Assembly (NCBI RefSeq): GCF_044324785.1
Contig: NZ_CP172129.1
Length of the DNA stretch: 64,000 nucleotides
Direction: 5' to 3' (one strand)
DNA from: Escherichia coli
Lineage (GTDB): Bacteria > Pseudomonadota > Gammaproteobacteria > Enterobacterales > Enterobacteriaceae
The translations under genes and the position numbers were made by a program. Each line of letters starts with the position of its first letter. Position 1 is the stretch's first letter. The notes beneath the pieces were generated by a model. It did not search any database. It was not told the DNA's origin and was given only the letters and a program-made list of their open reading frames with translations. Positions 26,172 through 51,138 of the stretch are shown one piece after another.

Positions 26172-26200
26172 AAATGATATTGGTAATTATTATCATTAGC
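26172..26200. promoter_or_regulatory. Possible Fur box upstream of iroB
   Basis: AAATGATATTGGTAATTATTATCATTAGC resembles the Fur consensus GATAATGATAATCATTATC; about 440 bp from the iroB start, so weak. Confidence 0.3.
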
Positions 26201-38041: not shown

Positions 38042-38244
38042 CTTGTCTCCTAAAAGCGCTATTTCAGACCATCAGTTGCACACAGTAGATGATAATGATA
38101 ATCATTTACTGTATAATTGGCAATATATGGGGATTCATAGTCATTTCTGAGATAATATACGTTAGGCCTTCTCTCCCGTACGGAAATCACTTGTTTTCCG
38201 TAAATTACCTGAATCTTAATCCCTGAGCTGCGGCTAGCTGTGGA

Positions 38245-38582
38245 ACTCACAAAAGCTGACCGGGCCGTGGCACAGCCTCTCTGCTGGCAGAACAGCGTAC
38301 TGCAGAAGTCGTCGTACTGCCGCTGGTCCCGGCATCAGGTCTGCCCGCAGATGGCACTTCTGCCACTGATCTGCCGGTGGAGCTGAACGGCATGACATAT
38401 CAGGCCTGCCGTGGGGATTTTGTGGTGCGCCTCGACGGCAGCACCTGTCTGCAGTTATAGAATAAAGAAGGCGGGGAGGTACGCAGGGAGGGCGATCCGC
38501 TGGAAGTGGCGTAGTGGCTGTAGGCCTGTAATGATGCAGGAATAGAAGTTCGTGTACAGGTTAATGAAAGCATCACCCCGTA
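38245..38582 (+). pseudogene. Decayed copy of the 3' half of the gene at 47720-48310, with in-frame stops
   Basis: DNA aligns with 47955-48310 at high identity but carries stop codons (…CAGTTATAGAATAAA…, …GTGGCGTAGTGGCTGTAGGCC…). Confidence 0.6.
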
Positions 38583-38909: not shown

Positions 38910-39076
38910 CAGGGCAATTGCCCGGGCTTTTTTTGCTCAAAAGTCACAGGAGCACCTCCGTTCCATGATGTAAACGTGACACAACTTATTGTTATTGATT
39001 ATTATTATCATACCGTGATTATGTTGTCATGCACCTGTACACTGATAAAAGAAAGGGAGAACAGGAGGCTGGCTGA

Positions 39077-39742: not shown

Positions 39743-39761
39743 CATGATAATGATTACCATT
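39743..39761. promoter_or_regulatory. Fur box upstream of cvaA
   Basis: CATGATAATGATTACCATT in the cvaA promoter region. Confidence 0.5.
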
Positions 39762-40065
39762 CTCTTTTAATATACAGAGAAACTAGGAAATAGATGAATG
39801 AGTTATGTTACTTTAATATTCTCTGACAATAACCTAAATCAGTTAGATTATTGTCATTTAATAAATAATGACATTCTTTCATCATAAATAAAAAGACTAT
39901 TGTTTATAATATTGTTCTCAGCATTATATGATTATTTATCCTGATAACTCTCCTATGCTGTATGTTTATATGATTTTCCTTGAAACATATAATGCAAATT
40001 TTCGATTTATTTTCCATCATTAATCCAGATAAACAACAAACTAATAGTATGCAAGGAGACATTAT

Positions 40066-42109: not shown

Positions 42110-43166
42110 GGCTTTGTTGAATAAATCGAACTTTTGCTGAGTTGAAGGATCAGATCACGTATCTTCCCGACAACGCAGACCGTTCCGTGGCAAAGCAAAA
42201 GTTCAAAATCACCAACTGGCCCACCTACAATAAAGCCCTCATCAACCGTGGCTCCATAACTTTCTGGCTGGATGATGAAGCTATTCAGGCCTGGTATGAG
42301 TCAGCAACACCTTCTTCACGAGGCAGACCTCAGCGCTATTCTGACCTTGCCATCACTACTGTGCTGGTCATTAAACGCGTATTCAGGCTGACCCTGCGGG
42401 CTGCGCAGGGCTTTATTGATTCCATTTTTTCTCTGATGAACGTTCCGCTACGCTGCCCGGATTACAGCTGTGTCAGCAGGCGGGCAAAGTCGGTTAATGT
42501 CAGTTTCAAAACGCCCACCCGGGGTGAAATCGCACACCTGGTAATTGATTCCACCGGGCTGAAGGTCTTCGGTGAAGGCGAGTGGAAAGTCAAAAAGCAT
42601 GGCCAGGAACGCCGCCGTATCTGGCGTAAGCTGCATCTCGCCGTTGACAGTAAAACACATGAAATCATCTGCGCTGACCTGTCGCTGAACAACGTTACGG
42701 ACTCAGAGGCCTTCCCCGGGTTAATCCGGCAAACCCACCGGAAAATCAGGTCAGCCGCCGCCGATGGCGCTTACGATACCCGGCTATGTCACGATGAACT
42801 GCGGCGTAAGAAAATCAGCGCGCTTATCCCTCCCCGAAAAGGTGCGGGTTACTGGCCCGGTGAATATGCAGACCGTAACCGTGCAGTGGCTAATCAGCGA
42901 ATGACCGGGAGTAATGCGCGGTGGAAATGGACAACAGATTACAACCGTCGCTCGATAGCGGAAACGGCGATGTACCGGGTAAAACAGCTGTTCGGGGGTT
43001 CACTGACGCTGCGTGACTACGATGGTCAGGTTGCGGAGGCTATGGCCCTGGTACGAGCGCTGAACAAAATGACGAAAGCAGGTATGCCTGAAAGCGTGCG
43101 TATTGCCTGAAAACACAACCCGCTACGGGGGAGACTTACCCGAAATCTGATTTATTCAACAAAGCC
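42110..43166 (+). mobile_element. IS903 (IS5 family), 1057 bp, flanked by 9-bp target-site duplication CTTCTCAGA
   Basis: Terminal inverted repeats GGCTTTGTTGAATAAATCG… at 42110 and …TTTATTCAACAAAGCC ending at 43166; direct repeats CTTCTCAGA at 42101-42109 and 43167-43175. Confidence 0.85.
42142..43110 (+). CDS. IS903 transposase
   Basis: 322-aa ORF filling the element; DDE-type transposase. Confidence 0.8.
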   Translation: MKDQITYLPDNADRSVAKQKFKITNWPTYNKALINRGSITFWLDDEAIQAWYESATPSSRGRPQRYSDLAITTVLVIKRVFRLTLRAAQGFIDSIFSLMNVPLRCPDYSCVSRRAKSVNVSFKTPTRGEIAHLVIDSTGLKVFGEGEWKVKKHGQERRRIWRKLHLAVDSKTHEIICADLSLNNVTDSEAFPGLIRQTHRKIRSAAADGAYDTRLCHDELRRKKISALIPPRKGAGYWPGEYADRNRAVANQRMTGSNARWKWTTDYNRRSIAETAMYRVKQLFGGSLTLRDYDGQVAEAMALVRALNKMTKAGMPESVRIA

Positions 43167-44495
43167 CTTCTCAGACTACCGCTGGCGTTTTTTGAACGCC
43201 GAAAATTAGGTGATATCCAGTCACGTTTTGACTCCCTTGACACATTGAGGGCCACATTTACCACCAGTGTGATCGGGTTCATAATGGACAGCATTATGGT
43301 TGTCGGTGTTTGTGTGATGATGCTGTTATACGGAGGATATCTCACCTGGATAGTTCTCTGCTTTACCACAATTTACATTTTTATTCGTCTGGTGACATAC
43401 GGCAATTACCGACAGATATCAGAAGAATGTCTTGTCAGGGAGGCCCGTGCCGCCTCCTATTTTATGGAAACATTATATGGTATTGCCACGGTAAAAATCC
43501 AGGGGATGGTCGGAATTCGGGGGGCACACTGGCTTAATATGAAAATAGATGCGATAAATTCGGGTATTAAGCTAACCAGGATGGATTTGCTCTTCGGAGG
43601 AATAAATACCTTTGTTACCGCCTGTGATCAGATTGTAATTTTATGGCTGGGAGCAGGCCTTGTGATCGATAATCAGATGACAATAGGAATGTTTGTAGCG
43701 TTTAGTTCTTTTCGTGGGCAGTTTTCGGAAAGAGTTGCCTCTCTGACCAGTTTTCTTCTTCAGCTAAGAATAATGAGTCTGCACAATGAGCGCATTGCAG
43801 ATATTGCATTACATGAAAAGGAGGAAAAGAAACCTGAAATTGAAATCGTTGCTGATATGGGGCCAATATCCCTGGAAACCAATGGTTTAAGCTATCGTTA
43901 TGACAGTCAGTCAGCACCGATATTCAGTGCTCTGAGTTTATCTGTAGCTCCGGGGGAAAGTGTGGCTATAACTGGTGCTTCCGGTGCGGGAAAAACCACA
44001 TTAATGAAAGTACTATGTGGACTATTTGAACCTGATAGCGGGAGGGTACTGATAAATGGTATAGATATACGCCAAATTGGAATAAATAATTATCACCGGA
44101 TGATAGCCTGTGTTATGCAGGATGACCGGCTATTTTCAGGCTCAATTCGTGAAAATATCTGTGGTTTTGCAGAGGAAATGGATGAAGAGTGGATGGTAGA
44201 ATGTGCCAGAGCAAGTCATATTCATGATGTTATAATGAATATGCCAATGGGATATGAAACATTAATAGGTGAACTTGGGGAAGGTCTTTCTGGCGGTCAA
44301 AAACAGCGTATATTTATTGCACGAGCCTTATACCGGAAACCAGGAATATTATTTATGGATGAGGCAACCAGTGCTCTTGATTCAGAGAGTGAACATTTCG
44401 TGAATGTTGCCATAAAAAACATGAATATCACCAGGGTAATTATTGCACACAGAGAAACAACGTTGAGAACTGTTGATAGAGTTATTTCTATTTAA
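43167..44495 (+). pseudogene. cvaB: cvaB 3' portion (remaining TM domain and ABC ATPase)
   Basis: Frame resumes …RLPLAFFERRKLGDIQSRF… after the IS903 duplication; Walker A GASGAGKTT, signature LSGGQKQR. Confidence 0.85.
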
Positions 44496-44664
44496 ACCAT
44501 AGAGGAATTACAAGCGTATGAGGAATATTTCTTCCTGTTATAATTCCTCGTTATGCTCAGATATCTGTTGGAGGTGGAATGGAAGATAGACAATCCACCA
44601 AGAAGAAATATCATTCTGTGTGGATTGTCCAATAACTGTTCTTTCTTATATTAAATAATACTAT

Positions 44665-44976
44665 TTATAAACAAACATCACTAAGATTATTTGGACTCCA
44701 ATTACACAATCTTCCCGCAGCATAGTTCCATGCTTCTGAAGGTATCCCTTCGGGTTTTTGCTTAATTGTTCCCCCTAAACCGGATGGAGACATTGCAGGA
44801 TTAGGTTTGTGAGTGGATGCATAGTCATATATTGCACCTCCAGCCACACCCCCAGCAGCTGCTCCAATTCCTCCTGCAACAAATTGCCCGGATAGTGTTC
44901 CTATAGCCATCGCAATATCACGCCCTGAAGCACCACCAGAAACAGAATCTAATTCATTTAGAGTCAGAGTTCTCAT
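44665..44976 (-). CDS. cvaC: CvaC, colicin V (microcin V) precursor with double-glycine leader
   Basis: 103-aa ORF MRTLTLNELDSVSGGASGRD… matching CvaC. Confidence 0.9.
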   Translation of the reverse strand: MRTLTLNELDSVSGGASGRDIAMAIGTLSGQFVAGGIGAAAGGVAGGAIYDYASTHKPNPAMSPSGLGGTIKQKPEGIPSEAWNYAAGRLCNWSPNNLSDVCL

Positions 44977-45190
44977 ATGATCTCCTTTTTATCTTATCGG
45001 ATATTGAATAATAATTATCACCAACAAAGTAACATATTGCAGACATTAATGCAGAGAAGCAAAATGTATGCATGGATAAAAAGTCCTTTCCTCTAAAAAC
45101 ACAATCATATATAGCTAATGCAATATATATTGCGGTGGCATTTATTATAAATGCAAATAACAACTCTAATTTTGTTCTTTTTCTATCCAT
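44954..45190 (-). CDS. cvi: Cvi, colicin V immunity protein
   Basis: 78-aa hydrophobic ORF directly upstream of and overlapping cvaC. Confidence 0.85.
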   Translation of the reverse strand: MDRKRTKLELLFAFIINATAIYIALAIYDCVFRGKDFLSMHTFCFSALMSAICYFVGDNYYSISDKIKRRSYENSDSK

Positions 45191-45237
45191 TACTTTTTAT
45201 CCCATTACTTTCTATCCCATTACCACACAAACACTAA

Positions 45238-45256
45238 CGATAATGATTATCGTTAA
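45238..45256. promoter_or_regulatory. Fur box in the cvi-cvaC promoter
   Basis: CGATAATGATTATCGTTAA about 50 bp upstream of the cvi start. Confidence 0.6.
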
Positions 45257-45308
45257 CATAGTCAAGAGTGAAGGGTAGGAGGCCCTCAACCCCCTATAAG
45301 GGGTCCGC

Positions 45309-46128
45309 TTGGAAAACGGATTTCCCCACGTCAAGAGAATTGATTTGAACGAGTGGCTTCGCTACAAACAGCTCCCGTTTGTGTGTGAAAAACCCCTCTC
45401 AACAGATCTCAACTCTGCACGATATCTACAGGAGATTGCTCCAAAAGGCAGTATCGTGTCTTTTAACTACCGATATAACCCCGTCATCGACATGATAATG
45501 CGTCTGAGAAATGAGAAGAAATTAGGTGAACTGCATTTCTTCTCAGCAGAATTTAATAAAAATTCTGCACTGACCCGCCATCACCTGACCTGGCGAGACT
45601 CCGCACAACAGAGCAAAAGCAGCGGTGCTCTGGGCGATCTATCCTGTCATCTGCTTGATTTATTTTGTTTTATAGGGGAAAGCCCGGTAGTGGTTCATGG
45701 GATCAAAACGGTAAAGGGGACACGTGGGTACAAAATCAGATGGTCAGGTTGAAGTGGATGATAACGGCTATGTAATGGGCAGTTCAGAAAAGGGAGCTTA
45801 TTTCAGAGTTCATGCCAGTAAATCGGAAACAGATCATAATTTGGGACTGCATATACAGCTTGTATTTGAAAATGGTGAAATCAGATATTCAACCCACCAT
45901 GAAAATCGCCTGCTCCTGATTCTATTTAATGATACGAATACGGAAACAATTGGCTTCGACGCTCTGAAACGCTTGCCTGATCCACCACGGGAGCTTCCAT
46001 TCTGGTCTGATTCGTTTATTCATCTTCATGACGACTGGTGTGCTCTTATTAAATATGGTCACTCGTCTCCTAAGCTGGCGGACCTGTCATCCGGCCTTCA
46101 TATACAGGAAATAATTGAGGCATTCTGA
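45309..46128 (+). pseudogene. Gfo/Idh/MocA-family oxidoreductase remnant (lacks N-terminal Rossmann domain, internal frameshift)
   Basis: ORFs 45309-45752 and 45724-46128 in different frames; first contains the conserved EKP motif region (…FVCEKPLS…). Confidence 0.45.
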
Positions 46129-46129
46129 T

Positions 46130-46399
46130 ATGGATACCATTCTTTTAACCGGGCTGTTTGCTGCATTTTTCACAACGTTTGCGTTCGCTCCCCAGAGCAT
46201 AAAAACTATCAGGACACGCAATACCGAAGGTATCTCCGTTGTTATGTATATCATGTTCCTGACAGGTGTAATCTCATGGATAGCGTATGGCATTATGCGA
46301 TCTGATTTTGCCGTACTGATCGCCAATATTGTCACACTGTTTCTGGCTGCACCAGTGCTTGTAATAACACTTATCAACCGCAGGAAAAAACACGTATGA
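46130..46399 (+). CDS. Small membrane protein with a PQ-loop (SemiSWEET-like) motif
   Basis: About 89 aa, three hydrophobic segments and an AFAPQ motif. Confidence 0.4.
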   Translation: MDTILLTGLFAAFFTTFAFAPQSIKTIRTRNTEGISVVMYIMFLTGVISWIAYGIMRSDFAVLIANIVTLFLAAPVLVITLINRRKKHV

Positions 46400-47723: not shown

Positions 47724-48310
47724 CTCAGAGCCGCCGACCGTCGCCACTGCAGCGAAGAATGCTGATTGTGCTGGCTGCCCTTGATGAAAAACGGCCAGGA
47801 CCCGTGCTGACGCGGGACATAGAACGGGTGCTGGAGCGAAGCGGGGAAGCCCCAGTCTACGGGCCAAACCTGCGCGCCTCCTGCCGTCGTCTGGAGGATG
47901 CCGGCTGGCTGCGTACCCTGCGCGCTCCGAACCTGCAGCTGGCAGTGGAGCTGACGGACGTCGGCCGGGCCGTGGCACAGCCTCTGCTGCTGGCAGAACA
48001 GGACCGCCTCCGGGCAGAACAGCGTGCGGCAGAAGTCGTCGTACTGCCGCTGGTCCCGGCAGCAGGTCTGCCCGCAGATGGCACTTCTGCCACTGATCTG
48101 GCGGTGCAGCTGAACGGCATAACGTATCAGGCCTGCCGTGGGGATTTTGTGGTGCATCTCGACGGCAGCACCTGTCTGCAGTTATGGAATAAAGAAGGCA
48201 GGGTGGTACGCCGGGAGGGCGATCCGCTGGAAGTGGCGCAGTGGCTGCAGGCCTGTCACGATGCAGGAATGGAGGTTCGCGTACAGATAAATGAAAGTGC
48301 CGCTCCGTAA
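47720..48310 (+). CDS. Hypothetical protein (196 aa), GC-rich
   Basis: Coupled to the upstream ORF; a decayed second copy exists at 38245-38582. Confidence 0.45.
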   Translation: MTQSRRPSPLQRRMLIVLAALDEKRPGPVLTRDIERVLERSGEAPVYGPNLRASCRRLEDAGWLRTLRAPNLQLAVELTDVGRAVAQPLLLAEQDRLRAEQRAAEVVVLPLVPAAGLPADGTSATDLAVQLNGITYQACRGDFVVHLDGSTCLQLWNKEGRVVRREGDPLEVAQWLQACHDAGMEVRVQINESAAP

Positions 48311-48587: not shown

Positions 48588-48715
48588 AGGAGCACCTCCG
48601 TTCCATGATGTAAACGTGACACAGCTTATTGTTATTGATTATTATTATCATGCTGTGGTTATGTTGTCATGCATCAGTACACTGACAAAAGTGCAAAAGA
48701 AAGGAAAACAGGCAG

Positions 48716-51024: not shown

Positions 51025-51138
51025 TTAATTTATTAAGGAGAAAATGGCATGTCAAGATTTAATGATAGTGATTATCATTAACATGAAGTGATTTTACGTC
51101 TGGATAACGTAAATGATTGCGGTATACAGGCCAGGCGG

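Follow-up and report, generated by a model that had tools for sequence, protein, structure and literature searches.

We analyzed a 64,000-nt stretch of Escherichia coli DNA from contig NZ_CP172129.1 (hereafter the window) around the colicin V genes cvi and cvaC. The two genes overlap by 23 nt and lie on the minus strand (Table 1), as they also do in >600 public records. Cvi begins MDRKRTKLE..., and RefSeq records likewise start cvi at the ATG of the unit denoted c below. The downstream gene cvaC has a strong Shine–Dalgarno (SD) sequence of its own (−8.7 kcal/mol). A 68-aa ORF that crosses the region on the plus strand (45072-45278) was dismissed, as it is antisense to cvi and without support.

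Table 1. Features of the cvi-cvaC locus, in window coordinates
Feature	Position	Strand	Source
cvi, colicin V immunity protein, 78 aa	44954..45190	-	ORF list; 100% identity to cvi-annotated records
cvaC, colicin V precursor, 103 aa	44665..44976	-	ORF list; annotated in relatives
-35 TTGACT, cvi-cvaC promoter	45260..45265	-	consensus scan
-10 TATCGT	45237..45242	-	consensus scan
Fur operator, perfect palindrome TAACGATAAT-G-ATTATCGTTA (45235-45255); best 19-mer 45239-45257 (17/19)	45235..45257	.	consensus and palindrome scans
Unit a GTAATGGGATAGAAA, with mini-ORF ATG GGA TAG (45220-45212)	45209..45223	-	TRF, minus-strand reading
Unit b GTAATGGGATAAAAA, with mini-ORF ATG GGA TAA (45205-45197)	45194..45208	-	minus-strand reading
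Unit c GTAATGGATAGAAA, 14 nt, with cvi start codon (45190-45188) and codons 2-4	45180..45193	-	TRF, ORF list

The candidate promoter, TTGACT-17-TATCGT, has 9/12 consensus matches and a spacer of 17 bp in the window. A first-pass annotation of this DNA had placed a Fur box beside a short repeat tract, and the box was readily recovered, with 17 out of 19 consensus positions and a perfect 10-1-10 palindrome. The operator overlaps the −10, as expected of a Fur-repressed promoter. In all 46 sequences compared, the segment from −35 through −10 has a constant length and differs by SNPs only. The 21-bp Fur palindrome is unchanged in 46/46 sequences, which for the metagenome loci among them holds by construction because the palindrome served as the search anchor.

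On the minus strand, the order is −35, Fur palindrome overlapping the −10, and units a, b, and c, with unit c forming the cvi start. A 13-nt stretch (45236-45224), the first two bases of which belong to the palindrome, lies between the −10 and unit a, and the −10 geometry predicts a transcription start at ∼45228-45232. Because both genes are read from the minus strand, the tract makes up the predicted transcribed leader plus the first cvi codons and is not upstream of the promoter. The earlier placement of the tract 5′ of the Fur box is correct on the plus strand only; in the cvi orientation, the tract is downstream of both the Fur box and the −10.

Published work fits this layout. A review passage citing Boyer and Tai (1998) locates the cvi promoter at the Fur site, ∼50 bp before cvi, consistent with the 47-52 nt between the −10 and the cvi ATG in the window. 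A 781-bp fragment has been cloned as the cvi-cvaC operon (PMC11465617); in window coordinates it runs from 45282 to 44502, with its start 92 nt before the cvi ATG. It is exactly as long as the corresponding interval in the three-copy window, which implies that the laboratory strain carried three units.

A tandem array made of the cvi start

The string quoted in the first-pass annotation was found on the plus strand at 45185-45225, and the three imperfect copies seen there correspond to a tandem array that Tandem Repeats Finder (TRF) reports at 45180-45223 (period 15, 3.0 copies, 90% matches, score 74). This was the top TRF score in the 64-kb window (the runner-up scored 43). Among 100 dinucleotide-preserving shuffles of the window, no array with a period of ≥7 scored ≥74 (maximum, 63), and the 15-nt unit GTAATGGGATARAAA had no second location in the 64-kb window. 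The top score, the shuffles, and the uniqueness of the unit together indicate that the repeat is genuine and more than a chance match. By TRF and the shuffles, these are head-to-tail copies beyond chance, as in a minisatellite. A core of 10-11 nt, close to the ∼11-bp unit first proposed, does exist; the real unit is 15 nt, namely, the core plus a TTTYT spacer, and the true period is 15/14 nt, with a last copy of 14 nt and the others of 15 nt. None of 12 GenBank/RefSeq records examined annotates the cvi tract as a repeat feature, and our literature search found no description of a repeat at cvi.

Compared with unit c, units a and b each have one extra G, which turns them into two-codon mini-ORFs (AUG-GGA-stop). 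These mini-ORFs are in the cvi frame, 15 nt (five codons) before the next AUG, and have the form of a two-codon minigene: an AUG, one sense codon, and a stop. GGA is also a feature of cvaC, where this rare codon encodes seven out of 17 glycines. Rare codons occur in cvi as well, with AGA at positions 3 and 5 (ATG GAT AGA AAA AGA; 45190-45176).

Copy-number alleles and recurrent length change

A 261-nt query recovered the locus from 667 plasmid records and from 724 of 5,426 complete E. coli genomes, with alignment lengths that hinted at indels. Alleles were then scored using fetched examples, synthetic allele queries, and core-only queries. Among ∼702 E. coli records, we counted ∼621 with three units (88%), ∼62-70 with two (9%-10%), seven with four (∼1%), and one with six (∼0.1%), counts that are approximate because partial and split alignments fall within the BLAST identity bands. 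The plasmid of E. coli ATCC 11775 has the three-unit allele. Independently, 34 metagenome contigs were sampled through the invariant 28-nt Fur/−10 anchor that they carry; 26 of these loci had three units, seven had two, and one had four. The dominance of three copies may have a simple explanation in the clonal spread of ColV plasmids.

The two-unit alleles (a-c) are exact 15-nt deletions that lack unit b, and one of them (H93/L011) matches a synthetic two-unit version of the window sequence at 100%. Unit a is the amplified unit in the four- and six-copy alleles; two four-unit alleles match a synthetic a-a-b-c at 100%, and the six-unit allele, a-a-a-a-b-c, comes from one record (L007). The array a-c-c (L004, L039) reflects another event, in which 14 nt of the start unit were duplicated. 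Gain or loss of units alters neither the frame nor the promoter. A synthetic query for a cvi start in GGG form (a "cvi-off" allele) found none in ∼700 records, with best matches to the normal allele at 99.3%.

Three of the 26 three-unit metagenome loci were variant: in two, the middle unit had an ATG>GTG change or a +C insertion, respectively, and the third had the array a-c-c. The two point variants of the middle unit come from one metagenome contig each (L026/L023), for which assembly error is possible. The +C insertion (GGGATCAAAAA) carries the mini-ORF past the cvi ATG in a different frame, and ATG>GTG alters the mini-ORF start.

We grouped the loci by their flanks, defined as the 51 nt that precede the tract and the 300 nt that follow it. 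The window haplotype was found with the arrays a-b-c, a-a-b-c, and a-c; a second haplotype with a-b-c, a-a-b-c, a-b-b-c, and a-a-a-a-b-c; and a third with a-b-c and a-a-b-c. The lineage with the Cvi substitution E9D carried a-c, a-c-c, and a-a'-c. Differing arrays on one flanking haplotype are the homoplasy characteristic of a variable-number tandem repeat (VNTR), and they imply no fewer than nine independent changes in length among alleles of cvi ≤6 substitutions apart in 237 nt. Given alleles of two to six units and recurrent changes on identical haplotypes, the tract is slippage-prone and not invariant. The comparison across ColV plasmids that the first-pass annotation had proposed thus upholds its suggestion of a slippage-prone tract, and the alternative outcome that it had named, an invariant tract, is contradicted by the alleles of two, three, four, and six units. 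What lies between the Fur-controlled promoter and cvi is a slippage-generated VNTR of the duplicated cvi start region.

The most divergent cvi alleles all have the array a-c, which suggests that two units are probably the ancestral state and that a-b-c is derived. When plasmids were searched by tblastn with Cvi, hits under 95% identity were nearly absent.

In extraintestinal E. coli of birds and humans, ColV plasmids are among the major virulence plasmids, and the cvi-cvaC cassette finds wide reuse as a secretion and immunity module. In an otherwise near-invariant locus, the sole length-variable element lies in the leader of the immunity gene and is built from the gene's own start and recurrently mutating. 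Copy number can serve as a simple typing marker for ColV plasmids, and caution is warranted when a "native" cvi upstream region is cloned, as it may hold two to six units depending on the source strain. The alleles with two, three, four, and six units also form a natural series for asking whether tandem two-codon mini-ORFs tune translation.

The leader as RNA

Judging from sequence features, a role of the leader at the RNA level is more plausible than a DNA-level array or a change of promoter spacing, and the putative effect of copy number would most likely be on Cvi translation. On balance, we favor the view that the array is a VNTR of cvi's own translation-initiation region, placed in the leader of the Fur-repressed cvi-cvaC mRNA, and that it modestly tunes the translation of Cvi. 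Each unit comprises a spacer, an AUG, and the first codons; the last unit (c) is the real cvi start, and each upstream unit, as AUG-GGA-stop, would act as a decoy start. Replication slippage or unequal recombination would add or remove units, altering leader length and the number of decoy starts and leaving untouched the promoter, the Fur operator, and the distance from the cvi AUG to the preceding unit. In the presumably transcribed tract, the unit adjoining cvi would supply a weak SD-like UGGGA that aids initiation, and extra units would lengthen a C-poor, unstructured, purine-rich leader. The SD-like unit and the longer open leader could together allow copy number to modestly tune how much immunity protein is translated relative to toxin, whose gene has a strong SD.

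Several properties of the predicted RNA bear on this proposal. The leader plus 20 nt has the composition A26 G17 U13 C1 and is thus purine-rich and nearly C-free, and the leader alone is predicted to be unstructured (−1.2 kcal/mol, z = −0.03). The sole SD-like element for cvi is the UGGGA of unit b, 9 nt upstream of the cvi ATG. Predicted duplexes with the anti-SD reach −4.0 kcal/mol for AUGs preceded by a unit (including ATG2) and −2.8 kcal/mol for the first AUG. Since 24% of random 20-mers from the window reach −4.0 kcal/mol as well, the UGGGA is weak evidence for an SD. Equilibrium folding allows the units to pair with AU-rich coding sequence. The probability that bases around the cvi AUG are unpaired is predicted to be lowest at one copy and generally to rise with copies for seven out of seven 3′ boundaries; with 100 nt of coding sequence, the model gives 0.38, 0.51, 0.67, 0.82, and 0.80 for one, two, three, four, and six units, respectively. 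Because the folding is at equilibrium and involves long-range AU-rich pairs, this trend may be inapplicable to a translated mRNA.

The closest structural precedent, as summarized in PMC4679880, is the 5′ UTR of Moraxella catarrhalis uspA2, where the copy number of AGAT repeats affects expression (Attia and Hansen 2006). At uspA2, as at cvi by our prediction, a strain-variable tandem repeat sits in the transcribed 5′ leader and not in the promoter or the coding region. The unit is 15 nt at cvi versus 4 nt at uspA2, and copies number 2-6 versus 6-23. Unlike the AGAT repeats described there, the cvi units carry start and stop codons, and the effect on expression at cvi is putative. The cvi array is a modest addition to the known leader VNTRs, unusual in that each unit is a two-codon copy of the start of the gene that follows.

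The main rival to the tuning of Cvi translation is neutral tolerance. The tract would then be a minisatellite, a tolerated duplication of the cvi start region with no measurable effect on Cvi or ColV expression. We regard this as a serious possibility, albeit not the favored one. Copies range from two to six on identical backgrounds with cvi and cvaC intact, and such free variation is equally compatible with no function. The frequency of equally good SD-like pairing in random sequence, the lack of RNA structure, and the lack of any Rfam match at E ≤ 1 across 44600-45500 all fit neutrality. So do the mini-ORFs: the unit unavoidably has stops in two frames, and short ORFs therefore arise automatically. 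Three observations weigh weakly against neutrality. No one-unit allele was found in ∼700 E. coli records (full-length synthetic query) or in the 34 metagenome loci, although slippage could make one; the most divergent cvi lineages keep an upstream unit; and the predicted accessibility of the start site depends on copy number. If copy number is without effect, the tract is an ordinary minisatellite.

A bolder version of the translational reading casts the array as a heritable, rapidly mutable rheostat for self-immunity that works through tandem minigenes, which we consider unlikely. Each translated mini-ORF would relay ribosomes to the cvi start or free that start from pairing, and through slippage a single Fur-controlled promoter would come to serve subpopulations that differ in their Cvi:ColV ratio. 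Such a mechanism would be of the contingency type, operating by way of leader minigenes and not by promoter spacing or frame shifts. As the units are recent duplicates, their retained ATG and stop codons are uninformative about selection.

Two systems with two-codon minigenes invite comparison. Phage lambda bar minigenes are two-codon ORFs that cause peptidyl-tRNA drop-off, and their toxicity requires strong expression and Pth limitation. They share with the cvi units the arrangement of an AUG, one sense codon, and a stop on a natural transcript, which in the case of cvi is predicted. The cvi units differ in their weak SD and Fur-repressed message, and we see no sign of sequestration of tRNA-Gly(GGA). 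The drop-off mechanism of two-codon minigenes is summarized in PMC8708949, which also describes the closest functional precedent, the axe-txe leader. There, translation of the two-codon minigene mg2 raises translation of the downstream toxin in cis in a distance-dependent manner. In the axe-txe leader, as in the predicted cvi leader, a mini-ORF of the form AUG-sense-stop precedes the regulated start in a toxin/antidote-type operon by a few codons. The mini-ORF at cvi, the role of which is putative, differs in being a tandem, copy-variable duplicate of the downstream gene's own start. The SD is weaker at cvi (−4.0 kcal/mol) than at axe-txe, and the stop-to-start distance is 6 nt at cvi versus 15 nt at axe-txe.

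The GGA-containing units could instead be an RNA-binding array, with sites for CsrA, another RNA-binding factor, or an sRNA that occludes the cvi start, and with the number of sites setting the degree of repression. Leaders of CsrA targets usually hold several GGA motifs, and at cvi, units a and b each match 8/12 positions of the SELEX consensus RUACARGGAUGU with a GGAU core, 15 nt apart and beside the start codon. Matches of this grade are, however, common (191 in 128 kb over both strands, or about one per 670 nt) and carry little weight, and the second site is owed to duplication alone. The GGA motifs are also not presented in hairpin loops, the leader is predicted to be unstructured, and our literature search found no link between Csr and colicin V. 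We consider such an array improbable.

DNA-level readings and the surroundings of the locus

The first-pass annotation had also raised two possibilities at the level of DNA, which fare worse still. One was a binding array for another regulator, which could take the form of sites for a second transcription factor or of extended Fur polymerization, acting as a roadblock just past the promoter. Three direct repeats in AT-rich DNA 12-15 bp from the Fur palindrome would suit such an array, and Fur spreads from strong sites at some promoters. Against this, the best match to the Fur consensus inside the tract is 9/19 versus 17/19 at the true box, on which basis we rejected an extension of the Fur site into the tract. 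The 15/14-bp period is out of helical phase, no dyad or inverted-repeat symmetry was found in the units, and unit number varies freely from two to six without compensating change. A DNA-binding array thus appears highly improbable.

The other possibility, that slippage alters promoter spacing as in phase-variation-type volume control, is compatible with the variable copy number and is otherwise refuted, as the whole tract is downstream of the −10, the −35-to-−10 length is equal in all 46 sequences (with a 17-bp spacer in the window), and a consensus scan found no alternative promoter-like site with the tract as its spacer. Promoter-spacer contingency repeats, such as the TA repeats of Haemophilus hif, are located upstream of the −35 and −10 or between them and alter the geometry of the promoter. 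They resemble the cvi tract in their slippage-driven length polymorphism beside a promoter; at cvi, by contrast, the tract follows the −10, and the promoter stays the same. The cvi tract is neither a promoter-spacer contingency repeat nor part of the Fur box.

The DNA immediately before the −35 is a G+C-rich palindromic stretch (45270-45310; minus strand GGACCCCTTATAGGGGGTTGAGGGCCTCC), the part of the alignment most polymorphic in SNPs and indels (GGGGG[T/G/-]TGAGGGC[C/T][C/G/T]CC). Two loci have insertions upstream of the cvi −35, an IS481-family element at ∼3 bp (L005; CP104511) and IS421 at ∼30 bp (L007; JBRBPX010000003), and in both the promoter, Fur box, repeat, and cvi are intact. Farther upstream of the cvi promoter, the window holds a frameshifted, N-terminally truncated pseudogene of a Gfo/Idh/MocA oxidoreductase (45309-46128), followed by an intact SemiSWEET transporter gene (46115-46399; NCBIfam NF037968, 96.7 bits).

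On the other side of the locus, cvaB is truncated (43245-44495), with residues 283-698 of the 698-aa CvaB left (415/416 identical), and is preceded by an IS5-family transposase gene (42142-43110; region 42142-43245). As cvaA is absent as well, the plasmid keeps cvi and cvaC without the ColV exporter.

Other strong Fur-box-like sites, matching GATAATGATAATCATTATC at 16-17 out of 19 positions, occur at 38091-38109, 39746-39764, 51064-51082, and 26176-26200 and presumably belong to other iron-regulated plasmid operons. Finally, we noted a nearly identical Fur-like 19-mer at 38991-39009 and 48631-48649, ∼9.7 kb apart, together with near-identical short TRF arrays at 38505-38523 and 48232-48250 (unit AGTGGCTGT vs. 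AGTGGCTGC), recurrences that suggest duplication of a segment or a mobile element present twice.
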